A stretch of DNA of 61,530 nt, filler included, from Coriobacteriales bacterium (GCA_031263105.1; 5 parts of 5 records of this genome joined end to end with filler, not necessarily neighbours in it); one strand, 5' to 3'; positions 38,270 through 54,689 are shown, numbered from the whole stretch's first letter. The notes: generated by a model not told the origin, from the sequence alone. Made by a program: numbers and translations.

Positions 38270-38369
38270 NNNNNNNNNNNNNNNNNNNNNNNNNNNNNNN
38301 NNNNNNNNNNNNNTTAATTAATTAANNNNNNNNNNNNNNNNNNNNNNNNNNNNNNNNNNNNNNNNNNNN
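38270..38369. other. Assembly gap/contig spacer
   Basis: N run containing TTAATTAATTAA. Confidence 0.98.
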
Positions 38370-38443
<74 letters not shown>

Positions 38444-38466
38444 AGCCCGTGCCCTGGTCGCTCCGC

Positions 38467-39024
38467 TCAGTCGGCCTTCGAGTAGTAGACCGGCTCGCCC
38501 GCGCAGGCCTTGCAGTAGGGGAGTCCTTCGCGCATCACCTCGCGGCTGTCGTGGACCTTCTCCCCGCAGGTCGTGCAGACATAGGTCTTCGTGGGCTTGC
38601 CGGGCAGGTCGCCCGGGCCGAGGTGGACGCTCACCTTCTCGACGATGAGCAGGTCGTCGTCGCTTATCGCCTCGTAGAATGCGACCTTGTCGGTCACGTC
38701 GTCTGTGGGAGAGATGTTCGCGGTATGGATGCGTATCGCCTCGCCGGTCTCGACGCTGTAGAAGGTCGCCGCCATCTTGCCGTAGTCCATCCACTTCAGC
38801 CGACGTTTGCCCAGCGTCAGGTGGGTGACCGAGGCGATGGCGTCCGCCAGGCAGCGGTCGGCCTCGACAAAGGCGATGAGGTCGGGCTTCCCATCGGAGT
38901 CATACGCCCCAAAATAGTCCAAGGCGTAACGCGCGATGCGGGTGCCGATGATCTGCCCGCCGCAGAGATGCCCATGAAAGGCAATCGCGTCGTTCAGGTC
39001 CTCTCTGAAGCTCCGTCTTTCCAT
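38467..39024 (-). CDS. FmdE-family protein with C-terminal zinc finger
   Basis: FHGHLCGG, RCLADAI, DYGKMAATF and CTTCGE...CKAC. Confidence 0.88.
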   Translation of the reverse strand: MERRSFREDLNDAIAFHGHLCGGQIIGTRIARYALDYFGAYDSDGKPDLIAFVEADRCLADAIASVTHLTLGKRRLKWMDYGKMAATFYSVETGEAIRIHTANISPTDDVTDKVAFYEAISDDDLLIVEKVSVHLGPGDLPGKPTKTYVCTTCGEKVHDSREVMREGLPYCKACAGEPVYYSKAD

Positions 39025-39115
39025 GCTGTGTTGCCTCGCTCTCCCAATCGTCGGTGTAAAGGCGTACCGGATACAGCACCATCATAGCGGTTTGCGCACA
39101 ATCGCACGCGGGGTG

Positions 39116-39248
39116 CAGGGGGACGGTTCTTTTGGGCAGGACGAGGGGACGGCCCCTGTGTCCCGTAGGGCATGAGGCGGCCTCGTAGGGGACGGCGCCC
39201 CCGACGTCCCGCACTCCACAGGACGAGGGGACGGCCCCCTGTGTCCTG
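39116..39248. repeat. Cluster of GGGGACGG hairpin repeats and one GTAG REP (39185-39211)
   Basis: CAGGACGAGGGGACGGCCCC(C)TGTGTCC twice; GTAGGGGACGGCGCCCCCGACGTCCCG. Confidence 0.65.
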
Positions 39249-39302
39249 TTCCCTGCTGCGCCCTGCTGCCCTGCGCCTCGGATGCGCAAGACCCCCTGCA
39301 AT

Positions 39303-39311
39303 TGCTATAAT
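39303..39311 (+). promoter_or_regulatory. Extended -10 promoter of tRNA-Pro
   Basis: TGCTATAAT ending 8 bp before the tRNA; similar TGCTA..T boxes at 35476 (prfA) and 57066 (metG). Confidence 0.6.
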
Positions 39312-39319
39312 CCTCATGT

Positions 39320-39396
39320 CGGGGTGTGGCGCAGCCCGGTAGCGCGCTACGTTTGGGACGTAGATGCCGCAGGTTCGAATCCTGTCACCCCGACCA
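39320..39396 (+). tRNA. tRNA-Pro(TGG)
   Basis: Anticodon arm CTACG-TTTGGGA-CGTAG, GGTTCGAATCC, CCA end. Confidence 0.96.
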
Positions 39397-39597
39397 GCTA
39401 AGCCAGCTTACTAGCAAGCACGTTCGCCTGACTGCTTTGAGGTGACAGGATTCGAAGCCTGACAAGGGGCGAGGCGTTAAGCAAACGTGCCAGTGGCACG
39501 TTTGCAGCCGAGCGTCCGAAGCGAGCAGCGCGAGCGAGGACACCAGACGCTAGGAGCGAAGCGACGACGCGGCTGTTCGAATCCTGTCACCCCGACC
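39397..39597 (+). mobile_element. Small tRNA-linked element ending in a duplicate of the tRNA-Pro 3' end
   Basis: 23-bp direct copy at 39575-39597, 16-bp inverted copy at 39441-39456, hairpin at 39481-39505. Confidence 0.55.
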
Positions 39598-39603
39598 CAA
39601 TTT

Positions 39604-40302
39604 CTACCCCTCGCTGAACTTGTAGCCGACGCGCCAGACGGTGAGGAGGTACTTCGGTTGTGAGGGGTTGTCCTCGATCTTCTCCCGTATCCTTCTGATG
39701 AAGACCGTCACGCTGTTGAGGTCGCCCAAGGTGCTGTCGCCCCAGATGTGCTCGAGGATCTGCTCGCGCGTGAAGACCTTGCCCGGCTCGGAGGCCATGA
39801 AGCTGACGATCTCGAACTCCTTGGAGGAGAGGTTCAGAGGGGCCCCTGCCTTCCGTATCTCGTAGCGGTCGTGGAAGATCTCCAGGTCGCCGGTCGTGCT
39901 TGAGCCTTTGAGCTGGGACTCCTTGTTGAACGCGATGTCGTTCTTGTGGCGCCGGATGTGCGCGTCTATGCGCAGCAGCAGCTCCTCGGAGCTGAAGGGC
40001 TTCACCACGTAGTCGTCGCCGCCGGCCTTGAACCCGATGCTCTTGTCGACGATGTCCCCCTTGGCCGAGAGGAAGATTATGGGGATGTTCCGCCCGTCGT
40101 CCCGTATGCGCCTGCACAGGTCGAAGCCGTTCAGGCCCGGCATCATGACGTCGAGGATGAGGAGGTCGGGCCTCTCGGCCTTGATCGCGTCGAGCGCGTC
40201 GAGGGAGTGCGAGACGTAGTGGAACTCGTAGCCCTCCTGGACGACGATGTCCTCGATGACCGACCGGATGCCCAGGTCGTCGTCCACCAGCATGATCTTC
40301 AT
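39604..40302 (-). CDS. OmpR-family response regulator
   Basis: LVDDD, LDVMMP, DDYVVKPF and IREKIE...VGYKF. Confidence 0.95.
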   Translation of the reverse strand: MKIMLVDDDLGIRSVIEDIVVQEGYEFHYVSHSLDALDAIKAERPDLLILDVMMPGLNGFDLCRRIRDDGRNIPIIFLSAKGDIVDKSIGFKAGGDDYVVKPFSSEELLLRIDAHIRRHKNDIAFNKESQLKGSSTTGDLEIFHDRYEIRKAGAPLNLSSKEFEIVSFMASEPGKVFTREQILEHIWGDSTLGDLNSVTVFIRRIREKIEDNPSQPKYLLTVWRVGYKFSEG

Positions 40303-41972
40303 TGCCTGAACTCCCTTCGTGTGCGGTACTCCCGCGGGAGCGTGACCGAGAAGGCGCTGCCCTGGCCTATCGTGCTGGAAAGGGAGACCTCCCCGCCGTG
40401 CATCTCGGTGTACTCCTTGACCAGGGAGAGCCCAAGGCCCGCCCCGCCGTGCTTTTGCGAGGCAGGGGAGTCGCCTCGGGCGAAGCGCTCGAAGATCGCC
40501 TCCTGGTCCTCGGCGGAGATGCCGATCCCGGAGTCCTCGACGTCGATCCTGACCGTCTCGTGGACGGCATCGTAGGAGACGCGGACCTGGACCTCGTCGC
40601 CCTCCTCGGTGAACTTGAGCGCATTGCCGATCAGGTTCTCGATCATGCTGCGGAGCTTGTCGGGGTCGGCCTCGAGCAGGGGCACCTCGGAGTCTATGTG
40701 GATGGCCAGGGCGACCTTGCCGTTGTCGGCGATGGGGCGCATCATGTCCTCGACGGCGGCCACCACGTCGCCCAGGTCGACCGTCTCTATCGAGAACTCG
40801 GCCTTGCCGGCATCGAGACGGGCGGTCTCAAGGAAGTTGTTGATCTTGCCGAGGAGGACCTGGCTGCTCGTGTTCAGCTCCCTGAGGAGGCGGTCGGTGC
40901 GCGGCGAGCTCAGCTCCTCGGTCTTTTGCAGCTGCGCCACGAAGGCGATGATCGCGGTCAGGGGCGTCCTGAGCTCGTGGCTGACGATCGAGAGGAAGTC
41001 GGACTTGAAGCGGTTCTCCTCGACGAGGCGCTGGTTGACCTTCTGCAGGATGTCGGACTGTTGCTCGAGGAGCAGGTTCGCGTTGCTGAGGGCCTCGGTC
41101 CTGCTCTCGACCTGGTTCTCGAGCGTGTCGTAGACGGCCTTCAGCTGCTCGGACATATGGACGAAGTCCGAGGCGAGGTCGTATATCTCGTCCTTGGAGC
41201 GGAAGCCGTCTATCGCCCCGTCCCACCTCCCTTGGGCAATCTCCCCTGCGGCGGTCTGCAGCTTTGCCAGGGGCCGCGTGACCCAGCGCGTCAGGAGGAT
41301 GTAGATGACGCCCACACAGGCGATCAGGATGAGGGCGGCCAGAAGGGTCTCCCGGACGATGTAGGTGTTCATGTTCTCCTTGAGCACCTTGGTCGGCATG
41401 GTGATGCTCACGGTGCCGTACAGGTCGCCCGTCCTCATCCCCTCCTTCGCGTAGCCCAGGATGTCGGTCTCGCCTCTGTGTCCGCCGTGGCATTCCAGAC
41501 AGGAGTCGTCCACGCGCATGGGGGCGATGTAGCGGAACACGTCGCTTCCCTTGTACTGTGCGAACCCCAGGAACTCGGCCAGGTCCGTGTCCTGCTCAAA
41601 CGCATCGAAGGCGGCGACCTCGTGGGCGTCGGCCATGTTGAGGGGGTTGCGGGGGCTAGGGCTTGCGAAGCGGATGACGTAGTCGGTCCTGCGGTTGAAG
41701 ATGTTCCCGATGCTCATGCCCACCAACGAGCAATGGAGGCGCTTGAACTCGTACTTGCCCTCGGAGTCGTAGTTGATCAGGTCCTGGTTGTTGGAGACGA
41801 ACTCCCATGCCGACATCATCTCCTCGTTGAGGATGTAGGCCTTCTCGACCAGTTCCGCAGTCATCCGTTGCTGCTGGGCGTTGATGTTCCACGCAAGGTT
41901 GACGCCCAGGGCGCCGATGACTATGGCGATAAGGGCGAGTGCGATCTTTTGACGCAGGCCGAATCCCCGCAT
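40299..41972 (-). CDS. Sensor histidine kinase with extracytoplasmic heme c (DUF3365-like) domain and HAMP
   Basis: CLECH (CxxCH) between two TMs; SHELRTPL, NALKFT, DSGIG and GAGLGL. Confidence 0.9.
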   Translation of the reverse strand: MRGFGLRQKIALALIAIVIGALGVNLAWNINAQQQRMTAELVEKAYILNEEMMSAWEFVSNNQDLINYDSEGKYEFKRLHCSLVGMSIGNIFNRRTDYVIRFASPSPRNPLNMADAHEVAAFDAFEQDTDLAEFLGFAQYKGSDVFRYIAPMRVDDSCLECHGGHRGETDILGYAKEGMRTGDLYGTVSITMPTKVLKENMNTYIVRETLLAALILIACVGVIYILLTRWVTRPLAKLQTAAGEIAQGRWDGAIDGFRSKDEIYDLASDFVHMSEQLKAVYDTLENQVESRTEALSNANLLLEQQSDILQKVNQRLVEENRFKSDFLSIVSHELRTPLTAIIAFVAQLQKTEELSSPRTDRLLRELNTSSQVLLGKINNFLETARLDAGKAEFSIETVDLGDVVAAVEDMMRPIADNGKVALAIHIDSEVPLLEADPDKLRSMIENLIGNALKFTEEGDEVQVRVSYDAVHETVRIDVEDSGIGISAEDQEAIFERFARGDSPASQKHGGAGLGLSLVKEYTEMHGGEVSLSSTIGQGSAFSVTLPREYRTRREFRQ

Positions 41973-42000
41973 TGTCCTTCTTTCCCGTCAGGCGGCACCG

Positions 42001-42080
42001 TGGCGTGGTCCGACATGGTCCGGCGTGGTCCGGCGTGGGCCGGCGTGGGCCGACATGGTCCAACATGGTTCGGCGTGGGC
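42001..42080. repeat. 8 x 10-bp tandem repeat (CGGCGTGGTC/CGACATGGTC variants)
   Basis: Exact 10-bp period in the divergent intergenic region. Confidence 0.85.
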
Positions 42081-42321
42081 CAGGCACCGCATTTCTTCCT
42101 GAGCCACATGATACCACGTGTTCGCGTCGGCACGTGGATTTCGAAGCCATGACCTGCGCGTTCTTGTTCTCCCTGCAAGAGCTGGCCTGTAAGAATTGTG
42201 CAAGGATCACGCAAGGAAATTACAACAACAGACGAATACCAATGACAGGGGGCGTTTGCTAGAATGCTTCTCGATCAAGCCGAAGAAGAGGAGCAGAAGG
42301 AACAAGAGAAGGAGGGTCCGT

Positions 42322-44979
42322 ATGTCCCAAGGTATGTCCCAGCGTATGTCCCAGGACAAGGGAGCATCAGGGCATCGACTGATGAGCCGCAAGGGCTTTT
42401 TGGCGATGCTCGGCGTATCGGCGGCGACGCTCGCGGTCAGCGGCTGTCAGCCAAAGGAGCTCGAGCCTATCACGGAGGAACAGGTACAGGAGATCGACTT
42501 CGACAACGGAACCTGGGTGACGGCCGCCTGTTGGCAGACCTGCCACTGCGGCTGCGTCAACAAGGCCCTCGTCGTGGACGGCATCCCCGTCCAACAGAAG
42601 ACCGACGACAACCATCCCGACTCGCCCGACTTCCCCCAGCAGCGCAGCTGCATCAAGGGGCGTTCGCTCCGCCAGTTCGTCATGGGCGCCGACCGCCTGA
42701 AGTACCCCATGAAGCGCAAGAGCTGGAGCCCCGGCGGCGGCGAGGGCGTCAACGCCCATCTCAGGGGCCGCGACGAGTGGGAGCGCATCAGCTGGGAGGA
42801 GGCGCTCGACTACACGGCCAACGAGTTCCTGCGCATCAGGGACACCTACGGCAACCTGGCGATCGCCTCCCGTATCTTGGACCAGATCCCCTACCTCAAC
42901 GCGTTCGGCGGCTACATCACGGTCTGGGGCCAGCAGTCCAACGGCGGGAACGTGCCTCCCTATACGGCCATGCGGGGCAACTCCTATTCGGACAAGACCC
43001 CGGGCGACCGCATCTCGCTGCGCAAGGCGAAGCTCATAGTGCTCTGGGGCTACAACCCCATCTACAGCGCGGGCGGCAGCAACACCAACTACGTCCGCCA
43101 CGCCAAGGACGCCGGCGCGAAGATCATCGCCGTCGATCCCTGGTTCTCGCCCTCGGCTCAGGCCCTGGCCGACGAGTGGGTGCCGGTGCGCCCGGGCACG
43201 GACACCGCGCTCCTTGCGGCCATCGCGTACCACATGATCGAGAACGACCTGCAGGACCAGGAGTTCCTCGACGCCTACACGGTCGGCTTCGATGCCGACC
43301 ACATGCCGGAAGGCGAGGAGGGGCAGGAGAACTTCAAGGACTACATTCTCGGGGCCTACGACGGCACGCCCAAGACGCCCGAGTGGGCGTCCGCGATCTG
43401 CGGGACGGCCCCGAGCGTCATACGCGACCTGGCGGAGCAGATGGCCACGACCAAGCCCATGACGCTCAGGGCCGGGCAGGCGCCCGAGCGCGTCTACAAC
43501 GGCGTCGAGTTCACGCAGATGTACCTGACGGTCGGCTGGATGACCGGCAACGTGGGCAAGCCGGGCGCCGAGGTGGAGGCGGCGGACGGGTCGTCCGGGG
43601 TGCAGGGCGGGCCCTCGGTCGTCTCCCTCGGCCCGACCCTCATGAAGAACTCCAAGAACCCCGTCTGCACGACCCCTCGCGGCGGCGGCACACTGGACGA
43701 CGGCAGCTTCGACCCGAGCATCTACCATGGCATCGCCTATGCCGAGTTCTGGACGGCCATCCTCGACGGCGTGCACACCGACTTCCAGAACGGGGAGAAC
43801 CAGGTGGACATCCGGTGCCTCGTGAAGTTCGGGCGCTGCAGCCAGATCAACCAGAACCTCGGCCTGTCCAAGGCCGTCGAGGCGCTGCGCAAGCCCGACC
43901 AGATAGAGTTCAACGTCACGTCAGAGTTCTTTATGACGCCGGACTGTCAGTACTCCGACATCGTGCTGCCCTGTGCGACCCCGTGGGAGTACGAGGGCGG
44001 CCATATCGCGGCCATCAACAAGGAGACCATCGTGATGGCCTCGAAGGTCATCGAGCCGGTCTACGAGTCGATGCCCAACTGGTGGATAAACAAGGAGCTG
44101 TGCCTGCGCACCGGCATCGACCCCTTGGAGCTGGGGCCCGAGGATCCCGAGCTCGACCCCGTCACACGGCTGGCCGAGTCGACGGTGAAGGACGACGACG
44201 GCGAGAAGGTGAACCTCGCAGAGGTGACCGCCGAAGACATCGCCGAGTTCGGGCTTGCGACCGAGCCGCATGAGGGCAGGGTGCCTCTCAAGAAGCTCAT
44301 CGAGGACGGCGGCTATCAGGTCGAGCGCAAGGACGGCGACCGCTTCATGTACACGGCCCTCAGCGAGTACATCGACGACCCGGCGGCGAACCCGCTCGAG
44401 ACCAGGTCGGGCAAGCTCGAGATCTTCTGCCGGGACCTCGAGGAGCGCATCGCGAACTACAACACGACGACCGTCGCGCCCATCGCCAAGTACGTGCCGG
44501 CCCTGGAGGGCTACGAGGACAGCTTTTCCGACTGGGAGGGCAAGGTCAAGGGCGAGTACCCCTATCAGCTGCTCGGGATACACATCCTCCGGCAGGCGCA
44601 CTCCTCCTTCGGCAACGTCAAGTCCATCGCGGAGGTGTTCGCCAACGACCTTATCCTCAACGAGGCCGATGCGGGGGACATCGGTGTCGTCACCGGCGAC
44701 ACGGTTCTGTTGAGCAACCCCCACGGCAAGGGGGTGCGCAGAGTGCAGGTCGCCTCCCGCGTCATGCCCGGGGTCGCGATCATCGGCCAGGGCAACTGGA
44801 TCGAGCTCGACGACGAGACGGGGATCGACATGGGCTGCAACATAAACTCCCTGACCGGGCCCCATCTGGTGTCGTCGGGCCTCTCGCCCTACAACACGGT
44901 GCTGGTGAAGATCGAGAAGTGGGACGGTGCTCCCCTGGAGCCCGACTATCTCCGTCCGCAAGTCATCATGAACGTGTAA
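42322..44979 (+). CDS. DMSO-reductase-family (DmsA-like) Tat lipoprotein molybdoenzyme
   Basis: AAGGAGG SD; SRKGFL signal; VSGC lipobox; CWQTCHCGC...CIKG; RLKYPMKR, PVRPGTD and SGKLEI. Confidence 0.92.
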   Translation: MSQGMSQRMSQDKGASGHRLMSRKGFLAMLGVSAATLAVSGCQPKELEPITEEQVQEIDFDNGTWVTAACWQTCHCGCVNKALVVDGIPVQQKTDDNHPDSPDFPQQRSCIKGRSLRQFVMGADRLKYPMKRKSWSPGGGEGVNAHLRGRDEWERISWEEALDYTANEFLRIRDTYGNLAIASRILDQIPYLNAFGGYITVWGQQSNGGNVPPYTAMRGNSYSDKTPGDRISLRKAKLIVLWGYNPIYSAGGSNTNYVRHAKDAGAKIIAVDPWFSPSAQALADEWVPVRPGTDTALLAAIAYHMIENDLQDQEFLDAYTVGFDADHMPEGEEGQENFKDYILGAYDGTPKTPEWASAICGTAPSVIRDLAEQMATTKPMTLRAGQAPERVYNGVEFTQMYLTVGWMTGNVGKPGAEVEAADGSSGVQGGPSVVSLGPTLMKNSKNPVCTTPRGGGTLDDGSFDPSIYHGIAYAEFWTAILDGVHTDFQNGENQVDIRCLVKFGRCSQINQNLGLSKAVEALRKPDQIEFNVTSEFFMTPDCQYSDIVLPCATPWEYEGGHIAAINKETIVMASKVIEPVYESMPNWWINKELCLRTGIDPLELGPEDPELDPVTRLAESTVKDDDGEKVNLAEVTAEDIAEFGLATEPHEGRVPLKKLIEDGGYQVERKDGDRFMYTALSEYIDDPAANPLETRSGKLEIFCRDLEERIANYNTTTVAPIAKYVPALEGYEDSFSDWEGKVKGEYPYQLLGIHILRQAHSSFGNVKSIAEVFANDLILNEADAGDIGVVTGDTVLLSNPHGKGVRRVQVASRVMPGVAIIGQGNWIELDDETGIDMGCNINSLTGPHLVSSGLSPYNTVLVKIEKWDGAPLEPDYLRPQVIMNV

Positions 44980-44994
44980 GGGAGCGAGGATACC

Positions 44995-45615
44995 ATGACC
45001 GCACAATACGGCTTCTATATCGACGTCGACCGCTGCACCGCCTGCAAGACCTGCATCGCCGCCTGCAAGGACAAGAACGACACCTTCGTCGGCCTCAAGT
45101 ACCGGCGCGTGATCGACTGCGAGGGCGGCAGCTGGACACAGAGCGAAGGGGTCCAGGTCCCCGACGGCGTGTTCGTCTACAGCGTCTCCTACTCCTGCAA
45201 CCACTGCGCGATGCCGGCCTGTCTGGCCGCCTGCCCGACGAACGCCATCAGCAAGCGTGACGACGGCATCGTGGTCATCGACAAGGACAACTGCATCGGC
45301 TGCGGCTCCTGCAAGGCCGCCTGCCCCTACGACACCCCCCGCCTGAACACCGAGGCGCAGGTGATGGGCAAGTGCGACTTCTGCGTCGACCGCCTTGAGC
45401 GTGGGGAGAACCCCGCGTGCGTGGACGCATGCCTGATGCGCTGCATCGAGCACGGGGAGCTTGCCGACCTCCAGGCGAAGTACGGCTCACAGGCCGACCT
45501 CGAGCCTCTGGCCTCGTCGGGCACGACGACCCCCTCGCTGGTCATAGGGCTTCCGAGGACGAACCCGGGCAACGCCCCGGTCAGGGTCGTCAGCCCTCCG
45601 GAGGAGCTGCTCTGA
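44995..45615 (+). CDS. DmsB-like 4Fe-4S subunit
   Basis: CTACKTC, CNHCAMPAC, CIGCGSC...CPY and KCDFC. Confidence 0.93.
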   Translation: MTAQYGFYIDVDRCTACKTCIAACKDKNDTFVGLKYRRVIDCEGGSWTQSEGVQVPDGVFVYSVSYSCNHCAMPACLAACPTNAISKRDDGIVVIDKDNCIGCGSCKAACPYDTPRLNTEAQVMGKCDFCVDRLERGENPACVDACLMRCIEHGELADLQAKYGSQADLEPLASSGTTTPSLVIGLPRTNPGNAPVRVVSPPEELL

Positions 45616-45621
45616 CGTGCA

Positions 45622-45684
45622 CGGCCGCCACGCCGACGCGGCCGCCACGCCGGCGCGGCCGCCACGCCGACGCGGCCGCCACGC
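45622..45684. repeat. 17-bp tandem repeat (CGGCCGCCACGCCGACG), about 3.7 copies
   Basis: Direct reading of the sequence. Confidence 0.8.
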
Positions 45685-45713
45685 TTCTGTGCACGCCCCA
45701 CTGTCATTCCGAG

Positions 45714-45876
45714 GTTTCTGTTCACCCTTCCACTGTCATTCCGAGCTTGTCGAGGAATCTTCGACCGCGTCAGCGGTCGACAGTAGGTCGAAGGGGTCTC
45801 AGATCTGCTGTTGGTCGCTTCGCGACCAAAGATCCCTCGGCGGGCTCGGGATGACAGTGGGGGTGTGAACAGAAAC
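45714..45876. mobile_element. 163-bp MITE-like element nested in an older copy, 8-bp TSD ATTCCGAG
   Basis: Perfect 12-bp TIR GTTTCTGTTCAC/GTGAACAGAAAC; TSD at 45706-45713 and 45877-45884. Confidence 0.85.
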
Positions 45877-45989
45877 ATTCCGAGCGCAGCCGAGGAATCT
45901 TTGTGCGGTTGCGGAGGCGACACCAGACGGCCTCATCGCTATACTGCGGTGAGGCCGTTTATGGCGTTCATGAGAAAGGTGGTCATACA

Positions 45990-46703
45990 ATGGGAGGAAG
46001 CGATGCGCTTGTCGTCACCTTTGCCAACCGGTGCTACCAGTACCAGCTTCTGAGGCTGATCTTCGGCAGTGAGCCCAACCGGGAGCTGATCTCGATCGCC
46101 GCGAGCGAGCCCACCCGGCTGTCGTTGGCCTTTTCTGCCGAGGCGGGCCAGGCGCAGACGGACGTGGCGGCCTCCCCGCAAGCTCCCTCCCTCTCCTTCC
46201 TGAACGACCTTGAGACACGGCTCGCGGCAGACCCTGATGGCGTCATAGACGGGCTGCGGGACGAGTACACGAGGCTCCTCTTGGGCCCGGAGGCCCTGCC
46301 TGCTCCTCCGTGGGAGTCCGTCTACCGCACAAAGGACCGCGTCCTGTTCGCCCCCGAGACCTTGGAGGTGCGCCGCGTCTATGTCGAGCACGGCTTTCTG
46401 CCGAAGGGCTACCCCCACGAGGCGGACGACCATCTGGCGCTGGAACTCGACTTCATGTACCATCTCGCCGAGCAGGCGCAGGCCTCCTACCAGGAAGGCG
46501 ACCTTGCAAAGACGCGCACGTCGCTCGCGGCCCAGCAAGCCTTCCTCAAAGACCATCTCCTCCGTTGGATAGACCGCTTCGCCACCGACATCCAGCAGGC
46601 CGGCGCACAGCGCTTCTACCCCCAGATGGCCCTGACCGCCGCCCGCCTCCTCCACGAGGACGCCGCCACCCTCGCCTGGCTGCTTGAGGGGCTTGAGGGC
46701 TGA
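45990..46703 (+). CDS. TorD/DmsD-family chaperone
   Basis: PPWESVY, EADDHLALELDFM and HLLRW. Confidence 0.92.
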   Translation: MGGSDALVVTFANRCYQYQLLRLIFGSEPNRELISIAASEPTRLSLAFSAEAGQAQTDVAASPQAPSLSFLNDLETRLAADPDGVIDGLRDEYTRLLLGPEALPAPPWESVYRTKDRVLFAPETLEVRRVYVEHGFLPKGYPHEADDHLALELDFMYHLAEQAQASYQEGDLAKTRTSLAAQQAFLKDHLLRWIDRFATDIQQAGAQRFYPQMALTAARLLHEDAATLAWLLEGLEG

Positions 46704-46793
46704 GGCTAAGCGCCCGGATTATGTGCCCCGCTGCGTAGGACAGGGGCACCAAGAAACCCCTATTTTCGCTGCCGCGTTTCTGTCTCGTCCTTT

Positions 46794-47047
46794 GTTATAG
46801 TCCACACCCCACTGTCATCCCGATTCACACCCCACTGTCATCCCGATTCACACCCCACTGTCATCCCGATTCACACCCCACTGTCATCCCGATTCACACC
46901 CCACTGTCATCCCGAGCCTGTCGAGGGATCCTCGACCGCGCAAGCGGTCGACCGCAGGTCGAAGGGCCCCCTGGCCTGCCGTTGGACACTGCGTGTCCAA
47001 AGATTCCTCGGCGGAGCTCGGAATGACAGTGGGGTGTGAACCGTAAC
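46794..47047. mobile_element. MITE-like element with tandemly repeated left end (23-bp period) and near-perfect 8-bp TSD
   Basis: CACACCCCACTGTCATCCCGA x5; flanks CGTCCTTT (46786-46793) and CGCCCTTT (47048-47055). Confidence 0.8.
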
Positions 47048-47168
47048 CGCCCTTTCTGCCATCTGGCGCACAAGCTGCGCACAAGCAACTAATCGGCACT
47101 TCCCTAGTTCACCTAGTTCATATGGTAGTATCATGATAATATGGAATCAACATCTGTCAGGAGTTGTC

Positions 47169-47426
47169 ATGTTGACTAAGGAGAGCACGAAAAGCAGCTC
47201 GTTCTCGTCTGCCGAGTCATTCGATGAGAATGCCCCGGGGTTCATCGCAAACATAATGGCCAGAGTGGAGTCCGCACGCAATCCAGGGAAACGTATCTCA
47301 TTGGATGAACTGTTCGTCATTGTAGCCGACAAGCGCAAGGTGCTCTTGACAGGTTCTATTTTGAGTGCGGAGACGGGTTGCGATCCGTCGAGAAGTTCAA
47401 TGGCTGCTATTCGAGTTCCAACCTAA
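47169..47426 (+). CDS. Small hypothetical protein (possible antitoxin-like remnant)
   Basis: AGGAG SD before ATG; lower GC; no recognisable motif. Confidence 0.3.
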   Translation: MLTKESTKSSSFSSAESFDENAPGFIANIMARVESARNPGKRISLDELFVIVADKRKVLLTGSILSAETGCDPSRSSMAAIRVPT

Positions 47427-47569
47427 GGGGAAAGGTTCCGTGCCGAACGCCTTGGGATGTCCACAGAGGACATCTGTGCTATGCTTCCAACGGTACGAGT
47501 AAGTAAAAGCAAGTAAAAATGGGGAAAGGCAAGTAAAAACCGTGAAAGCAAGTGAAAGGGCGGACGGCA

Positions 47570-48679
47570 ATGCCTGCGACTGAGACGAACAACCCGTTTA
47601 CTCCGACGTTCGGCAGCATACCGCCGCAGTTGGCGGGGCGGCAACAGATGATACGCGACATCCTCGGCGGTTTGGACAACGCACCCGGCGACCCTAACCG
47701 CACGACGATCTTCACCGGGGCAAGAGGCACCGGCAAGACGGTTCTTCTCGCGAAGCTGGCCGAGGAGGCATCCGCGCAGGGCTGGGTGAGCGCAAACGTG
47801 ACGGCACGAGAGGGCCTTCTTGAGGAGGTTCTCATGCAGGTCAAAGACAACGCCTCGGACTTCCTTGCCGCAAATGCCCCGAGCAGGATAACCGGCGTGG
47901 AGATTGCGGGCTTCGGCATCTCTCGTTCGGTCACAGAAGAGCCTGAGCGCACATGGCGCTCAAGGCTCACCGCTTTGGTCAAGGACCTCAACGAGCAGGG
48001 CGTCGGCCTGCTGATCACCGTCGACGAGGTCGACGCGCAGTGTGCGCCGTTGCGTGACCTGGTGGACACCTATCAGCATCTTGTGAGAGAGCGTCGCGAC
48101 GTCGCCTTGGTTATGGCAGGGCTGCCCAATAACATCTCGCAACTGCTGCAGGATAAGAAGATATCGTTTCTCAGGAGGGCGTTCCAGCACCGTCTGGACG
48201 CAGTGCCGAACGACGAGGTCGCCTTTGCCCTGCGCAAGACCATCGAGACATCCGGGCGCAGCATCGGATCCGAGGCGCTGGGGCTCGCCGCCGAGAGCAC
48301 GCAGGGATTCCCGTTCATGATCCAGCTCGTCGGCTACAACATATGGCGCCAAAACCCCCAACGCAAGGCGATCTCGCTTGAGGACACAAAAAACGGCATC
48401 GAACTTGCAGGAAGCGACATGCGGCGCATGATATTCGAAAGCACGATACACGACCTGTCCGAACAGGACATACGTTTCCTCGTCACATTGGCGAGAATCA
48501 ACGGCGAGAGCGACACGGCCCAGATCGCCGCCGCATGGGGCAGGGACGTGAACTACACCAGCAAGTACCGCAGGCGCCTGCTTGAACAAGGGATCATCGG
48601 CGAGCGCATGTTCGGCAAGATCGACTTCGACATCCCTCTGCTCAGTGAGTATATCCTCGAGCGGTTCTCAGAGTTTTAA
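47570..48679 (+). CDS. AAA/P-loop ATP-binding protein with probable C-terminal winged helix
   Basis: NPFTPTFG..P..LAGR, GARGTGKT, ITVDEV, GFPFMIQLVG and YRRRL. Confidence 0.85.
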   Translation: MPATETNNPFTPTFGSIPPQLAGRQQMIRDILGGLDNAPGDPNRTTIFTGARGTGKTVLLAKLAEEASAQGWVSANVTAREGLLEEVLMQVKDNASDFLAANAPSRITGVEIAGFGISRSVTEEPERTWRSRLTALVKDLNEQGVGLLITVDEVDAQCAPLRDLVDTYQHLVRERRDVALVMAGLPNNISQLLQDKKISFLRRAFQHRLDAVPNDEVAFALRKTIETSGRSIGSEALGLAAESTQGFPFMIQLVGYNIWRQNPQRKAISLEDTKNGIELAGSDMRRMIFESTIHDLSEQDIRFLVTLARINGESDTAQIAAAWGRDVNYTSKYRRRLLEQGIIGERMFGKIDFDIPLLSEYILERFSEF

Positions 48680-48836
48680 GGCGGCGCACTGTCCGGGCGT
48701 TGGCGAACTGCTGGCAGTCGGCAGTCGGCTGCAGGCGCGGCCCGTCCAAGCGGGGCTGAGTGACAGAGAGCAAGGGCTGCTGCTGCCTCACGAACTCCAA
48801 GGGGACAGCAGCCCCTCTTCATCTGCCAGGCGTCCC

Positions 48837-49499
48837 TCAGCGGCTCGGCTCCCGTTTGTTGCCGCCGCGCGATACCGTTGACGACTGCTCCGCAAGCAGC
48901 GTCTCGCTCAAGCCGAGATAGCGTGTCGCGGTGTCCAGGCCGAGCTCTGCCCTGAGCGCCTCTGCGTCGGCGTCTGCCAGGATGCGGGAGATGTCGCTTT
49001 CCGGGTCGTTCGTGTCCCCGAATATGCGTGCCTGCGTTATACAGGTTCCGACGCAGGCGGGGAGCATCCCTTGGCTGGCCCGATGGAAGCAGTAGGTGCA
49101 CTTCCCTGCGCGTCCCGCTTCGGCATCGAGGTATCGCGCCCCATAGGGGCAGGCCTGCACGCAGCTGCCGCATCCGATGCACTCCTGCCTGTCTATCACC
49201 ACGGCGCCGCCCTCCTCGACGAAGGTCGCGCCCGTCGGGCAGACGGTGATGCAGGGCGCGTCGGCGCAGTGGTTGCAGAGCTTGGGGACGTTCGCCCGCG
49301 TCGTCTTCGGGTACTCCCCGCTGTCCCAGCTCTCGACCCAGGTATTGAAGCAGGTCACAGGGACCGCGTTCTCGATCTTGCAGGCCACCGCGCAGGCGCT
49401 GCATCCGACGCACAGCGAGAGGTCGATGAGCATCCCGTAACGCTTTTGGCCGCTGTCGGTCTGTCCGGCAGCGGCTATGGCCGTGTCTGTGTCTGTCAT
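48837..49499 (-). CDS. TtrB-like 4Fe-4S subunit
   Basis: CVGCSAC, CNHCADAPC, CIGCGSC...CPY and KCTYC. Confidence 0.9.
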   Translation of the reverse strand: MTDTDTAIAAAGQTDSGQKRYGMLIDLSLCVGCSACAVACKIENAVPVTCFNTWVESWDSGEYPKTTRANVPKLCNHCADAPCITVCPTGATFVEEGGAVVIDRQECIGCGSCVQACPYGARYLDAEAGRAGKCTYCFHRASQGMLPACVGTCITQARIFGDTNDPESDISRILADADAEALRAELGLDTATRYLGLSETLLAEQSSTVSRGGNKREPSR

Positions 49500-49512
49500 G
49501 GTCTCCTCGCCT

Positions 49513-52500
49513 TCACTTCGTGATCCTATAGGCCCCGCCGTTGCGTCCCGGGGAGCCTGCTTCGGGGTCCGACAGGGGAAAGATGCCCGGGACGGTCGGG
49601 TCGAGCATCGTGCAGAGGTTGATGCCTGCACCGATTGCAGCATCCCCGGGAAGGCTCTCGCCGGAGATCTCGATGTCCTGCGCACCGTAGGCCCGATGCC
49701 CGTACCCGTAGGCAACGCCCACGGTTCCTCGGGCAATGCCTGCCCGGACCAGCACCGGTGCCTCCATCACGTCTCCAGACGGGTTGGACAAGTGTGCGAT
49801 GTCGCCGTCAGAAAGCCCGAACCGCTCTGCATCGTCGGTGTTGACCTCCAGATAGTTGGTCTCGCTCAGGTCGCGCATGAGAGGGCTGTTCGCCAGCATC
49901 GAGACCGACCGGAAGCGAGGCTTGTAGTTCGTGGCGGCAAGGGGCCACTCCTCTTTCGTGTACCGTTCGGCGATGGGGGAGAGGTCCGCGAACGTCTCCG
50001 GCCGCCACACGAGCGTCCCGGAGGCCGTCGCCCCCGACAAGGAGTTGCTGTTCGTCGCGCGGCCCTCGTTATAGAGCAGGGTCATGAGCTCGTACCCGTA
50101 GGCGCTCGCCTCGCCCTTGAAGGCGTCTTCCGCCGGCCAGAAGCGCCCGCCGCGCGAGAGCACGTTGAGGACCTTGGGCCACTCCTCCTCCGTGACGGCT
50201 GCTTTCCACTGCTCGGGCAGCCCGTCGAGCCTCTGCACATCGAGATCGCTCTCTGCTATGTCGGCAACCGGCGCGGTGTCCCATGCCAGGTTCGCGACCC
50301 CCTTCAGGAACATGTCGGCGGCATCCTTGAAGGGATAGGCGCTTCCATCGACCGACTTCAGCGCGTTTTCTCCAAAGCCCGGCAGTGCGCATGCCTGCGC
50401 CACATCGCACACAAAGGCCTCGAAGCTGGCATGGCGCCCATCCGGGAGCACCTCCGTCAACGGCTCGACGACGGGCCAACGGACCGTGTTGCCACGGTTG
50501 AGCAGATGCCCCTCCGAGGTCACGATGCCAAAGCTCTCATAGGGAGTGGTGTCAGGGACGAAGTAGTCCGCGAGGCTCGCGTGCTCGCCCATGACCACGT
50601 CGCAGGCTATGGACAGGGGCACGCAGCCCGGGTCCTTCAGGCGGTCGATGACGCTCTCCCTCATCGCGCCCGAGGTGCCCTGCAGGACGTTCGTCATCCA
50701 GGAGAGCATGATCTTCGCCGAATAGGGGTACTGGTTCACCACGGATATCAGGGCCTGCGAATCCGATATCTTCGCAAGGGGGAACCAGGGCAGAAGCGGC
50801 GCGGTGTCCTCTCCGCTCTCTTTCTTGCGCTGGTATTCGGAGGTCTTCTCGTAGGACACCCCTGTCCTTGAGATGGGCAGCGCCGACACCTTCGGCACGC
50901 CGTCGATGTCGTCCAGAAGGTAGCGGTCGCCGTTGACGGTCGTTTTCGCGGAGGCTCGCCAAGGAACCGTGCCCCCCTTCATGAGGTCGCTGCCGATGAA
51001 GGCGGCGAGTATCGAATTGAGGTTGGCGGCATCCACGCCGTTCACCGCCGAGCTCGGCGCCAGGCCATAGACCGAGGCCCTGGTGCCGTGCGAGGTGAAC
51101 TCCTGTGCGATGCGGGCGATCTCCTCTGAGGGCACCTCGCATAGCGCGGCGAGCTCATCGATGCTGCGTTCGAAGGCGGAGTCCTTCAGGAAGAGGAAGG
51201 CGCTGCGCACGGCAACGCCGTTGACGCTTCCCTCGTACTCGAGCTGCGCGCGCGTGCTCTGTCGATGCAGGGCAGGCTGACCGCTTGACGCGTCGATGAC
51301 GACGAAATGCTCCTCCGGTTTGGCGGGATCCTCCGCCTCCGGTGCGCTGAGCCCTGCGTCCTCGGGGCGCATGAGCCTCCGGTGGTTCGGATGTCCGGGG
51401 TCGGTGACGACCAGATGGGTCGCATTGCAGAACGAGGCGTAGCCTCCCTCGCATGCGGCCCGGTAGTTCGGAAACGACATGAAGTCCTTGTTGTGGGCGT
51501 CGTTCTCCAGCATCCAGCGGATAAGGCCGAGGGCGAAGGCGGTGTTGGTCGCCGTTTTGATGGGGAGCCAACGGGCCTGCTTCTGGGTCGGGGTGACGAC
51601 CCCGTTACAGAGAACGGGATCGAGGATGTCCATCGAGAGCGAGCCGTCGGCAAGCCGTGAGGAGCAATGCCGCGCGATGGCCTGCATGGTCTTCCCGCTT
51701 GCACCGGGGAAGCCGCCCAGGCACAGCACGTACTCGGCATGGTCGAAGTCGTTGCGGACGTCCTGGGCGCCCTTCATGAAGGCGAGTATGTCCTTTGCGC
51801 CGCCGCACGTGGAGCCATGGTTGAACCAGTTGACCGAGCCGAAGCAGGTGGCGAAGCGTCGAGCGACAAAGGCCCGCCCGTCACCGCGGCCTCCGAAGAC
51901 CACCAGTTGGTTCGACTTGGGCCCGAGTTCCGGTGCGGTGGGGTCCAAGGGGGCCTCGGTGTCCCGTAAGGCCCGAAACCCCTCGATGGGCCGCTCTTCT
52001 CCTATGTGCTCGAACAGCTTCCCCCCTTCCACCACCTCGTCTATCAGCTGCTCCCAACTGATGGCCTCCCATTTTCCTTCGCCACGGGCACCGGCACGTT
52101 TGAGCGGCGTCGTGATTCTTCCCGGTTGCGCGTATGCGTCAAGGGTGCCGTTGCCGCGCCCGCAGACCGTGGCACGGACCTGGTTGCCCCGTATCTGGCC
52201 CATCATCCGATAGGCCTCATCGAGAGGCTCGTCGAACGCCAGCGGGGGATATGCACAGCAGGGGCTGTACGGGTTCCCGCCGACGCTCATGATGGTACCC
52301 GTCGCCCTGTCGATGTGGACGCGGTTCCCACACGTGCTGTAACAGCCGAGACACGCGCTGTACCGGACGATCACCTCGGGGTTGACGGTCACCTCTCCTG
52401 TCGCTTGGTCGACATGCGCCTCGACCTTGTGCCCTCCGTAGCGCTGCTCGGGTCGTTGCTCGGGCGGAGATGCCTCCGTGGGGTCGTCCCGTTCACGTGG

Positions 52501-52686
52501 CCCGCAGGCGGCGAGACTGCCTGTGGCAGCCAGGGCCGCGCCCGCGCCCGCCGCCTTGACGAACGAGCGCCTGCTGACGGGGTGCCGTGCCTCTGTGCGG
52601 CGGCTTCCGTTCCGGGAAGCCGACTGCCGTGCCCCGGCATCGTTTCCGATAGAGGGGCGCGCCTTTCCCTTTCCTCTCCTTCTCAT
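49513..52686 (-). CDS. Tetrathionate-reductase-A-like Tat lipoprotein molybdoenzyme
   Basis: SRRSFVK Tat motif; LAAC lipobox; CLGCYSTCG...GNPYSP...CGRG; HGSTCG; RGGRF and YGYGH. Confidence 0.88.
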   Translation of the reverse strand: MRRRGKGKARPSIGNDAGARQSASRNGSRRTEARHPVSRRSFVKAAGAGAALAATGSLAACGPRERDDPTEASPPEQRPEQRYGGHKVEAHVDQATGEVTVNPEVIVRYSACLGCYSTCGNRVHIDRATGTIMSVGGNPYSPCCAYPPLAFDEPLDEAYRMMGQIRGNQVRATVCGRGNGTLDAYAQPGRITTPLKRAGARGEGKWEAISWEQLIDEVVEGGKLFEHIGEERPIEGFRALRDTEAPLDPTAPELGPKSNQLVVFGGRGDGRAFVARRFATCFGSVNWFNHGSTCGGAKDILAFMKGAQDVRNDFDHAEYVLCLGGFPGASGKTMQAIARHCSSRLADGSLSMDILDPVLCNGVVTPTQKQARWLPIKTATNTAFALGLIRWMLENDAHNKDFMSFPNYRAACEGGYASFCNATHLVVTDPGHPNHRRLMRPEDAGLSAPEAEDPAKPEEHFVVIDASSGQPALHRQSTRAQLEYEGSVNGVAVRSAFLFLKDSAFERSIDELAALCEVPSEEIARIAQEFTSHGTRASVYGLAPSSAVNGVDAANLNSILAAFIGSDLMKGGTVPWRASAKTTVNGDRYLLDDIDGVPKVSALPISRTGVSYEKTSEYQRKKESGEDTAPLLPWFPLAKISDSQALISVVNQYPYSAKIMLSWMTNVLQGTSGAMRESVIDRLKDPGCVPLSIACDVVMGEHASLADYFVPDTTPYESFGIVTSEGHLLNRGNTVRWPVVEPLTEVLPDGRHASFEAFVCDVAQACALPGFGENALKSVDGSAYPFKDAADMFLKGVANLAWDTAPVADIAESDLDVQRLDGLPEQWKAAVTEEEWPKVLNVLSRGGRFWPAEDAFKGEASAYGYELMTLLYNEGRATNSNSLSGATASGTLVWRPETFADLSPIAERYTKEEWPLAATNYKPRFRSVSMLANSPLMRDLSETNYLEVNTDDAERFGLSDGDIAHLSNPSGDVMEAPVLVRAGIARGTVGVAYGYGHRAYGAQDIEISGESLPGDAAIGAGINLCTMLDPTVPGIFPLSDPEAGSPGRNGGAYRITK

Positions 52687-52929
52687 GCCTGACTCCTTCT
52701 CTGCTCTGACCGATGTGCCGCCCTTGTATGCAAGGGCATCTCAGCATAGGCGACGAGAGGCGGGGGCAGTGTCGCATGAAGGAGAGGATTTCTGGAGGCA
52801 GTTCTGACAGGCCGGTCGGCCATGTCGCCAAAAACTGATGACAGGGCCCCCTCTGGCAGTGCGCACGAAGGTTTTTGGCTATAATCTGGGGAATAATCTC
52901 AGGGAGTTTGTCGGAGAGGGCAGGGACAG

Positions 52930-54663
52930 TTGCAGGTTACACCCCACTGTCATTCTGAGCGGGGCGCCCGCAAGGGCGCGCAGCGTGAGAATCCTTGGAC
53001 GCGCAGCGTCCGACTGGCCCGATTGGGCGCCGGTGCGTTCCGTGGGCCTGTCGGCCCGTCCTCGCTGAAAACGCGATGCGTTTTCCGGGCGCTCGGACCC
53101 AAAGATTCCTCGGCTCCGCCTCGGAATGACAGTGGGTTCTCCTATACTGCAGGGCTTGCCCTGTTCATGGCATGGGTCAACTGCGCCTTCTTTTCGTGTC
53201 TGTTGACCCAGGAATACCCGATCGAGAACGCCGCAGAGTGGTTCTGGGGGTTCTCCATGCTTGCCACAGCCGCAACCTGCGGGTTTCTTTGTCTGCGCCT
53301 GAAGAGAGCACACAGGCAAAAGGCCTTGCCGGATTCCGCCGGTGATTCCGGGTGGAAGCGTGCCTTTGCAGGGGCGGTAACAGCGGCAATGGGAACGGTC
53401 GTCGTCTGTCTTTTCTCGTATCCGTCATGGCCTGCCCTCCTTCTCATAGGCGGCTGCTTGGCGGGCTTCGGCTTCGTGCTGCTCTTGTCGCAGTGGGAGG
53501 AGGCCCTCTCCGGCTTCGATGCCTTTGTGATAGAGTCGATGATTCCGACGGCCTTCGTCCTTTCCGTCCCTGTCTATGCCCCCCTCATACTGTTCAAGGG
53601 CACCTTCGCGGTCGTCGTCACGATGCTGCTCCCCCTGCTCTCGCTCTTCTTCCTGCTCCGGGGCGACTCCGAGCAGAGAGGCCCTTCCCAGAAAGGCCAG
53701 GGGCCTCCTCTGTTGCCCTTCATGGGCCAAGGAGGTCGCAGCGCCGCCTCCGGGACGTTCCCGACGACGCTGCGGCAGTTCCCCGGCATGTGGGAGACAG
53801 GAGTCGTGTTGCTCGCCTTCTGGTTCTGCTTCGGTCTGTTCAGGGTGTATGTCGCGCCCTGCTATCCCAGCGGCGGCTTCCCCCATTACCTGGTCGCCTT
53901 TACGGTCGCCCTGTTTCTTGCCCTTGCGCTGTTGGTGCTGAGCCTGTTCCGGGAGCGCTCGATCAACATCTCGGTGGCGTACAAATGGGCGCTCCCTTTC
54001 ATGTGCCTGGGTTACGCGCTGTTGCTGCTGTTGGGAGAACAGCGGAAGGAGATACCCTATACCGTCGTGTTCTTCTGTCTGCTGAACCTGCAGCTCTTCG
54101 TGTTCGTCTCCGTCGCCAAATACGCAGGCCGCAACAACGTCGATGCCCGTTTCGTCCTTGCCGTCCTCTTCGGCCTGATAGGGGCGGGCGCCTTTCTGGG
54201 AACGCTTCTCGGCTTTGCGGGCCGTGCCCTGTTTCCAGACCAGGTGTTGACGACTGCGATGCCGCTGCTTGTCACCGTCCTCGTGAGCGTGGTCATGGCC
54301 TTGGGCCGCAGGTCCGAGCGTTTCCATGCTCTCAGGGCGCCTGTGCCGAGGAAGGCCGTGTACACCGATGCCGCCCTTGGTGGGAACGGCGGGAGGGCCC
54401 AAGTCAAGAATTGGACGCAGATCCACGACCTGGTTGTCTGTGCGCAGGCGGCAGTGGTTGCCGAGCGCTACTCGTTGTCGGAACGTGAGTGCGAGATACT
54501 CCGCTTCCTTATTTCTGGATACAGCCGTTCCTCCATACGGGACGAACTGGTGATTTCGCTCAACACGGTCAATACCCACGTGAGACGTATCTACACGAAA
54601 CTGGACATCCACTCCCACCAGGAGCTGATCGGGATCGTCAGGGAGATGCAGCCAAAGGGCTAG
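52930..54663 (+). CDS. Multi-TM LuxR-family regulator (start uncertain; repeat in frame at the N-terminus)
   Basis: Hydrophobic segments plus LSERECEIL...TVNTHVRRIYTKL; divergent from the ttrA-like gene. Confidence 0.88.
   Translation: MQVTPHCHSERGARKGAQRENPWTRSVRLARLGAGAFRGPVGPSSLKTRCVFRALGPKDSSAPPRNDSGFSYTAGLALFMAWVNCAFFSCLLTQEYPIENAAEWFWGFSMLATAATCGFLCLRLKRAHRQKALPDSAGDSGWKRAFAGAVTAAMGTVVVCLFSYPSWPALLLIGGCLAGFGFVLLLSQWEEALSGFDAFVIESMIPTAFVLSVPVYAPLILFKGTFAVVVTMLLPLLSLFFLLRGDSEQRGPSQKGQGPPLLPFMGQGGRSAASGTFPTTLRQFPGMWETGVVLLAFWFCFGLFRVYVAPCYPSGGFPHYLVAFTVALFLALALLVLSLFRERSINISVAYKWALPFMCLGYALLLLLGEQRKEIPYTVVFFCLLNLQLFVFVSVAKYAGRNNVDARFVLAVLFGLIGAGAFLGTLLGFAGRALFPDQVLTTAMPLLVTVLVSVVMALGRRSERFHALRAPVPRKAVYTDAALGGNGGRAQVKNWTQIHDLVVCAQAAVVAERYSLSERECEILRFLISGYSRSSIRDELVISLNTVNTHVRRIYTKLDIHSHQELIGIVREMQPKG
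52936..53136. repeat. 201-bp MITE-family repeat in frame within the LuxR ORF
   Basis: GTTACACCCCACTGTCATTCTGAG...CGGAATGACAGTGGG. Confidence 0.8.
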
Positions 54664-54689
54664 GCGGCCTGTTGTCATGGGGCAGGGAG

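Follow-up and report, generated by a model that had tools for sequence, protein, structure and literature searches.

Bacterial MITEs are represented by such families as Correia/NEMIS in Neisseria, RUP in Streptococcus pneumoniae, and Nezha in cyanobacteria. How the TIRs of a transposon stay alike is a question that has been poorly studied for the IS66 family of insertion sequences, whose ISBst12 group includes the closest described counterpart of the elements considered here, ISDge4. This IS has the TIRs GTGACTACTCAGCA/GTAACTGCTCAGCA, an 8-bp direct repeat, and copy-and-paste behavior; it is active and transposes with TIRs that are not identical, and the chemistry of IS66-family transposition is still little characterized (PMC12898284).

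The locus described here is a MITE nested in a member of its own family in a termite-gut bacterium (Coriobacteriales bacterium, GCA_031263105.1), whose MAG, G000, comprises 2.9 Mb in 250 contigs with 64.5% G+C and is 86% complete. The window, by which we mean the whole stretch of 61,530 nucleotides that was analyzed, consists of five MAG contigs (C168, C170, C171, C172, and C178) joined with linkers. Contig C172 (window 38370-56772) carries the nested locus, which lies in the spacer that separates a DmsB-like from a NarJ/TorD-type gene, both downstream of a molybdopterin oxidoreductase gene (the ORF preceding the DmsB-like gene, 927 aa; PF00384, E 3.5e-35). The features of the window are as follows.

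13546-13645, 29550-29649, 38270-38369, and 56773-56872: linkers, N/TTAATTAATTAA
44995-45615, plus strand: upstream gene, 4Fe-4S dicluster subunit (DmsB-like) in a molybdopterin oxidoreductase operon; ORF, Pfam Fer4_11, E 2.7e-25
45619-45686, no strand: 17-bp tandem repeat of ~4 units abutting the outer arm terminus; three overlapping 32-nt copies at 17-nt spacing, 91-100% identity
45686-45713, plus strand: 5' part of the outer (putatively older) solo arm, with degenerate terminus GCTTCTGTGCACGCCCC and core CACTGTCATTCCGAG (core at 45699-45713); nhmmer arm match C172:7314, model positions 5-31
45706-45713, no strand: TSD copy 1, ATTCCGAG, which doubles as the 5' half of the local hairpin stem in the outer arm; 0 mismatches to copy 2
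45714-45876, plus strand: inner (putatively younger) complete 163-bp MITE with GTTTC...GAAAC termini
45714-45725, plus strand: left TIR, GTTTCTGTTCAC, with T at position 4 where the family has A
45865-45876, minus strand: right TIR, reverse complement GTTTCTGTTCAC
45877-45884, no strand: TSD copy 2, ATTCCGAG
45885-45905, plus strand: 3' part of the outer solo arm, CGCAGCCGAGGAATCTTTG, with the loop and the remaining (3') half of the split hairpin; fused to 45686-45713, it yields the intact 28-mer
45990-46703, plus strand: downstream gene, NarJ/TorD-type chaperone (Nitrate_red_del); ORF, Pfam PF02613, E 2.7e-31
46794-47047, plus strand: neighboring family copy of 254 bp (C172:8425-8678), its left arm with 23-bp tandem arm-unit copies
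46810-46916, 56897-56968, and 7189-7222: runs of tandem arm units

The anatomy of the locus agrees with the preliminary description, which had reported a 163-bp insert at 45714-45876 with identical flanks, GTTTC...GAAAC ends forming a perfect 12-bp pair, and an arm that is restored when the insert is removed. The inner MITE (C172:7345-7507) reads GTTTCTGTTCAC at its left end and GTGAACAGAAAC at its right, with the terminal pair 12/12 complementary on direct reading, and is bracketed by an exact 8-bp duplication of ATTCCGAG at 45706-45713 and 45877-45884. A repeat search extends its arms to 56 nt at 80% complementarity; the two arms differ at 4/32 aligned positions (13, 15, 16, and 27), directly inside the matched 12-mer. 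Folded as single-stranded DNA, the element is predicted to form a terminal stem, paired arms, and three internal hairpins (-59.8 kcal/mol, z = -12.07). Its best other copy in the genome is 87-89% identical. The host of this insertion is a solo arm of the same family. Excision in silico, with one ATTCCGAG kept, yields a spanning 28-mer that is found uninterrupted elsewhere in the genome, 10 times exactly and 190 times at up to three mismatches, compared with 0 matches for 20 shuffled control probes, so that a genuine family arm is restored, of the type ...CATTCCGAG-CGCAGC-CGAGGAATCTTTG. This outer host is a left arm only, comprising a degenerate terminus, the core, the hairpin loop CGCAGC, and then CGAGGAATCTTTG, with no facing right arm downstream. 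Position 4 of the outer arm may also be T (GCTTC), either a coincidence at ~1% frequency or an ambiguity of alignment.

The same spacer holds a separate hairpin at 45927-45958, with 13-nt arms that are 92% complementary and a 6-nt loop, followed by TTTAT and lying ~30 nt upstream of the chaperone gene start. A terminator-like or regulatory role within the operon spacer is possible. An Rfam scan of 45000-46600 returned only a chance miRNA match (E 0.77, far below gathering).

Apparent nesting of this kind might arise if a short-read assembly were joined wrongly at a high-copy repeat, or it might be one of the tandem arrays of arm units. The MAG comprises 250 contigs that often end in MITE repeats, and tandem arm units of 18-23 bp are frequent in the family. 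We compared the locus with Logan contigs of run X1, which is probably the source sample and so does not give independent support. One contig covers 45655-45759 and bridges the left junction, and another covers 45843-46150 and bridges the right, each with 0 differences and each reaching unique flank. No single X1 contig spans the whole nested structure, which leaves some room for an artefact, but no joint skipping the insert was found in that run either. Runs X2 and X3, which gave only repeat-internal pieces and nothing, respectively, are uninformative on absence. The exact 8-bp TSD, the family termini placed precisely at both junctions, and the precise restoration of the outer arm on excision all speak against a mis-join, and the 32-nt spacing and full TIR do not fit arrays of 18-23-nt arm units. 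Mis-assembly, which the preliminary description had named among the things that would undo its account, is thus unlikely, and we give an artefactual or array origin very little credence. Several contig ends lie inside copies of the family, indicating that the MITE family fragments the assembly.

The family to which both elements belong is large and dense. Arm cores (CACTGTCATTCCGAG, up to two mismatches) number 32 in the window, against 0.16 expected, and 1268 in the genome, on 215/250 contigs and in 511 clusters, 180 of which are simple two-arm elements. The ~511 loci of this 2.9-Mb MAG account for 3.73% of the genome and, on a crude definition of the non-coding fraction, for ~18.8% of that. 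With the terminal 31 nt used as a profile, 1427 arm matches were obtained, 763 with the terminal part, and the pairing of facing termini defined 165 full elements with a modal length of 162-163 bp. Flanking 8-mers with 0-1 mismatch accompany 88/165 of these, compared with 0/164 controls taken 12 nt further out than the element flanks. The termini read GTTAC(T/A)G(T)TCACACCCC, with consensus GTTACTGTTCACACCCC at both ends, and the boundaries of the inner MITE and its ATTCCGAG repeat fit the family termini and 8-bp TSD exactly. This is a true MITE family, that is, a non-autonomous DDE transposon with 8-bp TSDs: TIRs stand at the exact ends of the elements (12/12 here; 101/165 pairs are GTTAC/GTTAC), the TSDs are fixed in length and diverse in sequence (60% GC), and the many dispersed copies are too small for a transposase. 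The exact 25-nt pattern of terminus plus core had 0 matches in public genomes, and searches of literature text with arm substrings returned only unrelated primer or miRNA matches, so the family is not in print under those strings in the literature searched.

Pairing within the element is kept across the family. Among 51 aligned copies, drawn from the 60 elements of 155-170 bp after six of uncertain orientation and three others had been left out, 91.7% of cells are paired, compared with 29-42% when partners are slid, and 24 pairs have two-sided changes; the reference structure was taken from one of the 51 sequences, which favors the pairing score. Each arm has a local hairpin, ATYCC-GAG-loop-CGAGG-RAT, and A-type and B-type arms stay distinct in sequence across the family. 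Genome-wide, the arm hairpin (in the window at 45738-45759 and 45833-45854) is CATTCCGAG...GAGGAAT in 337 cases, CATCCCGAG...GAGGGAT in 188, and unpaired in 13 (n = 538); because each form belongs to one of the two arm types, the number of two-sided changes is inflated by kinship. About a quarter of the 511 clusters have head-to-tail units of 18-23 nt in their arms; each unit comprises the core, in some cases along with part of the TIR, and the runs reach ~9 units.

The hairpin core also occurs on its own. The pattern CACTGTCATTCCGAG-N4-14-GAGGAATC (in the window, e.g., 45731-45759) is found exactly at no fewer than 97 loci (L031-L127) in public MAG and isolate genomes of many phyla, including Dehalococcoidia, Terriglobia, Bacteroides, Rhizobiaceae, Saccharibacteria, Verrucomicrobia, Planctomycetota, Ruminococcus, Luteimonas, Hymenobacter, and others. 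Among the loci listed, the loop is mostly CGAAGC or CGCAGC, the upstream sequence is variable, and the MITE TIR is absent; in some Dehalococcoidia, the core recurs at periods of ~150 or 172 bp (L090 and L110).

To what extent does the family target itself, as had been proposed for this locus? The empty sites of the 88 clean insertions were rebuilt and scanned with the arm profile. Four insertions lie inside another copy's arm (C172:7345, C180:2424, C101:6478, and C8:4948) and a fifth, C230:32163, abuts a truncated terminus; all five are at different target octamers. If insertion were random genome-wide, 3.3 nested cases would be expected among the 88, and 16.5 if it were confined to crude non-coding DNA. 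Neither an excess of nesting nor a hotspot is apparent among these insertions, although the count is a lower bound, as nested copies are harder to detect and assemble. Self-targeting therefore finds no support, nesting being no commoner than chance. As part of our overall explanation, and with the same fairly good confidence, we regard the landing in an own-family copy as a chance consequence of the abundance of the family, at ~3.7% of the genome and about one-fifth of non-coding DNA. Of the five insertions that are nested or abut a terminus, three or four are in the outer ~20 nt of the host, the TIR region, which with n = 5 is no more than a hint of a possible weak preference for resident ends.

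The matching changes at the two ends of the inner MITE raise the second question, since the preliminary description had suggested that one end was templated from the other or that end pairing matters more than exact sequence. The covariation that it had proposed looking for across copies is present. Matched left/right variants total 175 among the pairs, compared with 91 on average and 118 at most after shuffling of the partners, and terminal 12-mers are identical in 45/165 pairs (shuffle mean 9.9, maximum 22), namely, 34/88 elements with intact TSDs and 11/77 with decayed TSDs. Positions 4, 6-9, and 17-19 account for all of the excess, and matched variants are seen only at positions 4, 6-9, 11, 13-20, 23, 25, 27, and 31. 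At positions 1-3, 5, 10, and 12, there are 0 matched and 69 one-sided variants family-wide, and the often-variable positions 14 and 27 show no excess (27 vs 24.5 expected and 22 vs 23.4). For the terminal pentamers, 64 of the 165 pairs have a variant, which is matched in 5 (four GTTGC/GTTGC and one GTTTC/GTTTC, the inner MITE) and unmatched in 59.

A possible source of such matching is a copying of one terminus to the other in the folded element, by template switching in the quasi-palindrome or by mismatch repair of a hairpin or cruciform, with matched variants arising repeatedly. Quasi-palindrome template-switch correction, a mutational process that perfects an imperfect inverted repeat by copying one arm, is known for short, close arms. 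The element does fold to one long hairpin with its termini paired, the matched variants and identical 12-mers exceed their shuffled maxima, and rare variants occur on both ends of single elements, e.g., GTTACAGTCCAC, GTTACTGTGCAC, and GTTTCTGTTCAC. In G000, A or T at position 4 is found with T or C at position 8 in every combination, in each case on both ends. Local copying should not, however, spare the six conserved positions or positions 14 and 27; it should leave matched variants at all paired terminal positions, including those that disable mobility, and such a pattern was not found in the family. This position-specific split, with tolerated positions matched and critical positions one-sided, argues against in-place copying of ends. 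The 4/32 differences between the arms of the inner MITE, right next to its matched 12-mer, and the distinct sequences kept by A-type and B-type arms weigh in the same direction. The idea that one end of the inner MITE was templated from the other thus finds no backing, and copying between ends as the general source of the matching seems to us improbable. Our reading is instead that variants at transposase-tolerated positions were propagated by source copies, so that they appear in several copies and often at both ends, whereas variants at critical positions represent post-insertion decay and are one-sided. In favor of inheritance, identical terminal 12-mers are more frequent where the TSD is intact than where it has decayed, and the ACG-type terminus is tied to a body marker, with CATTCCGAG in the A-arm of 10/10 ACG rows.

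The GTTTC terminus is rare in this genome, with 6 GTTTC compared to 447 GTTAC among the 763 terminal arms. A second GTTTC...GAAAC element at C49:4705-4926 has a degenerate left end, by eye a seventh GTTTC arm, and no clean TSD (5 of 8); the ends of C214:6412-6515 are GTTAC/GTTTC, and two other GTTTC arms have a partner that is off-contig or replaced by a homopolymer run. From the pentamer frequencies, A-to-T changes that arose independently at position 4 of the left and of the right end are expected in ~0.01 of the 165 pairs, and hence the matched T/T state was inherited or produced by some coupling. The two T/T copies also differ symmetrically at position 8, with TGTTCAC at both ends of one and TGCTCA at both ends of the other.

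A related genome places the T/T state in a wider context. In G009, of the same bacterial family but another genus, GTTTCNGTTCACNCC occurs 44 times and the GTTAC type GTTACNGTTCACNCC 12 times, with 0 matches for backwards-read control patterns. From 40 stretches, 29 end pairs were obtained, 22 T/T, 6 A/A, and 1 mixed (Fisher p 1.5e-5, though the copies are kin), making 28/29 matched at position 4; the ends beyond these pairs have no recognizable partner within the stretch fetched. The mixed element, ATTAC/GTTTC, has a perfect TSD. Only the last 32 nt of the inner MITE match G009, at 88-91%, with the terminus and a related core common to both. As the body of the inner MITE is of the G000 type, its T/T state is not simply that of an imported family. 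The inner MITE is thus a local-type body with T/T ends, and T at position 4 of both ends is an established lineage state in the bacterial family rather than a peculiarity of this locus.

In G009, a GTTTC...GAAAC pair 1333 bp apart on C12 was considered as an IS but has no TSD (5 mismatches) and a 260-aa ORF; it was read as two ends around other DNA and is counted among the 22 T/T pairs. Some MITE copies of this genome (L150, L179, L183, and L184) contain a second palindromic unit of ~30 nt, GGGGACGCTGTCCACAGCGTCCCC-like, nested singly or multiply, and the same kind of unit is also found around the 260-aa ORF bracketed by these GTTTC ends.

End state and element body are decoupled in G009. The six A/A elements share no diagnostic internal column, and constraining them to one clade costs 31 lnL units (AU p 1.9e-5). 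The test excluded the terminal 5 nt, and only the AU test was used, as the element tree is almost unresolved (1/22 inner branches well supported). This decoupling is what copying between ends would produce, yet it could equally come from ectopic gene conversion of interiors that does not reach the outermost bases, which would be spared because homology ends there, and this is the explanation that we prefer. Alternatively, it is possible that both ends switch together repeatedly. More generally, the termini may change state together again and again whatever the body, with A/A becoming T/T at position 4 and T/T becoming C/C at position 8, either through a symmetrizing step in the fold-back life cycle that corrects one end against the other or through co-resident transposase specificities, each in need of its own terminus at both ends. 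We hold this to be doubtful, if somewhat less so than copying between ends; were it true, the nested copy would be one visible product of a symmetrizing or specificity process.

The termini point to the source of mobility. In a relative from the same bacterial family, G020, a 2302-bp IS has GTTACAGGTCACACC at both ends, with flanks CAAAACGG/TAAAACGG. Its 575-aa product matches DDE_Tnp_IS66 (E 8.5e-20) and DUF6444, and also zf-IS66, though below cut-off. The terminus variant GTTACAGGTCACACC is also present among the G000 MITEs, and it is only in this relative that an autonomous element with the same ends was found. DDE_Tnp_IS66 (PF03050) has matches in 5/34 genomes of the bacterial family, above cut-off in 4, and 0 in G000, a genome that is 86% complete and breaks at repeats. 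In G000, the best tblastn match to the G020 transposase has E 0.39, and of 59 end pairs 600-4000 bp apart, none has a TSD with fewer than three mismatches, as sought for an IS-sized element. The family shares the 8-bp TSD and the GTAA/GTAAC-type termini of IS66/ISBst12, with no DDE_Tnp_IS66 transposase detected in the assembled part of G000. A transposase in G056, 42% identical to that of G020, has one visible end, GCTACTGTTCACACGG, of the GCTAC type. Distant relatives in 9/401 genomes of the phylum have GTAACTGTTCAGG at both ends (L198 and L201) or GTAACTACTCAGCG with a perfect 8-bp TSD (L200). The termini of L198, L200, L201, and L204 are of the GTAAC type, while the MITE family and the G020 IS have GTTAC, position 3 being T vs A, and in every related IS for which both ends were found, the two share one pentamer, GTTAC or GTAAC. 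The searches turned up no autonomous IS ending in GTTTC, and metagenome scans for the transposase, with a single protein and with a 2-row alignment, gave 91 and 211 pattern matches, none confirmed as a relative.

Two other candidates were rejected. IS6/IS26 was considered as the mobilizing family for its 8-bp TSD and CTGTT-containing terminus, and DDE_Tnp_IS240 (PF13610) is found in 0/34 genomes of the bacterial family, including G000. A classical three-ORF IS66 in G043 has GTAAGCGTC ends, unlike those of the MITE. This element (G043:C78, L190) encodes proteins of 106, 118, and 530 aa between GTAAGCGTC termini 2484 bp apart and is distinct from the single-ORF, GTTAC-ended type.

Matched ends might also be maintained by selection, either because the termini must pair in a single-stranded or synaptic intermediate or because there are two variants of the transposase, each requiring that an element carry the terminus specific to it at both ends. 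The terminal helix covaries at four pairs (pair 4, AU 46, UA 1, and GC 1; pair 6, UA 19, AU 13, and CG 1; pair 7, GC 36 and CG 9; pair 8, UA 26 and GC 13), and both the 28/29 match at position 4 in G009 and the identical pentamers of each two-ended IS would be expected under such a requirement. Unlike-ended combinations of 12-mers nevertheless recur at several loci, one 5 times and four others 3 times each, including AGTTCAC/TGTTCAC (5), ACGTCAC/TGTTCAC (3), and AGTTCAC/TGCTCAC (3). Pair 6 is unpaired in 14/47 scored cells, the mixed G009 element has a perfect TSD, a second transposase type was not found in the genomes searched, and ISDge4 transposes with non-identical TIRs (PMC12898284). Of the suggestion that pairing outweighs exact sequence, then, the covariation itself stands, at positions 4, 6-9, and 17-19. 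The primacy of pairing is at best partly borne out, as unlike-ended lineages have multiplied too, most variant pentamers (59/64) are unmatched, and the ISDge4 TIRs differ from each other. Selection for alike ends thus strikes us as an improbable main cause, on a par with copying between ends.

Our preferred explanation combines two successive transpositions, IS66-type mobilization in trans, inherited T/T ends, and chance nesting, and we consider it, as a whole, likely. A family member that is now a solo left arm would have sat in the spacer between the DmsB-like and NarJ/TorD-like genes, and a complete 163-bp copy would then have inserted into the 5' half of its local hairpin, duplicating ATTCCGAG. 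The MITE was presumably mobilized in trans by a single-ORF IS66-family (ISBst12-type) DDE transposase, which would recognize ~12-17-nt termini of the form GT(T/A)(A/T)C-NG-NTCAC and make 8-bp staggered target cuts. The matched GTTTC/GAAAC ends would have been inherited from a source copy that already carried T at position 4 of both ends, rather than created at the locus, with this T/T source being a minor sub-lineage in G000 and a major one in the related genus (G009).

The nested insertion in itself only dates two transposition events, showing that the family was active after the first copy had decayed. More can be learned from the family as a whole: its hundreds of copies, whose ends and TSDs are defined, reveal the changes that an ISBst12-type end tolerates, namely, those at positions 4 and 6-9, and not those at positions 1-3, 5, 10, and 12. 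The sharing of variants between left and right ends is far above chance, and if a mechanism other than descent is responsible, this would bear on how the TIRs of transposons stay alike.

Compared with ISBst12-group IS66 elements such as ISDge4, the family has in common the 8-bp TSD and termini of the form GT(A/T)AC-TG-(C/T)TCA, the MITE GTTACTGCTCAC agreeing with ISDge4 GTAACTGCTCAG at 10/12 positions (PMC12898284). It differs in having T rather than A at position 3, with T also at position 4 of the inner copy, and, from the group generally, in lacking a transposase, in its length of 163 bp, and in a near-palindromic body of hairpin modules unrelated to the IS interior.

In its general character, the family is like other bacterial MITEs, which are short, non-coding, high-copy, and intergenic, have TIRs and TSDs, fold strongly, and occasionally insert into one another. 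It is unlike them in its IS parent and TSD length, its unusual density (~511 loci in 2.9 Mb), and its tandem 18-23-nt arm units. The local arm hairpin, the conservation of its pairing, and the occurrence of the hairpin motif alone, without the TIR, in many phyla recall the REP/BIME and dRS3/NIME hairpin repeats, but the hairpins here lie inside a TIR-bounded, TSD-making element. Quasi-palindrome correction would have the same outcome as templating of one end from the other, and the position-specific pattern seen here speaks against its being the principal origin of the matching. Set beside these systems, the nested MITE is best read as real but ordinary, with matching ends that mark a rare sub-lineage rather than a special copying trick.
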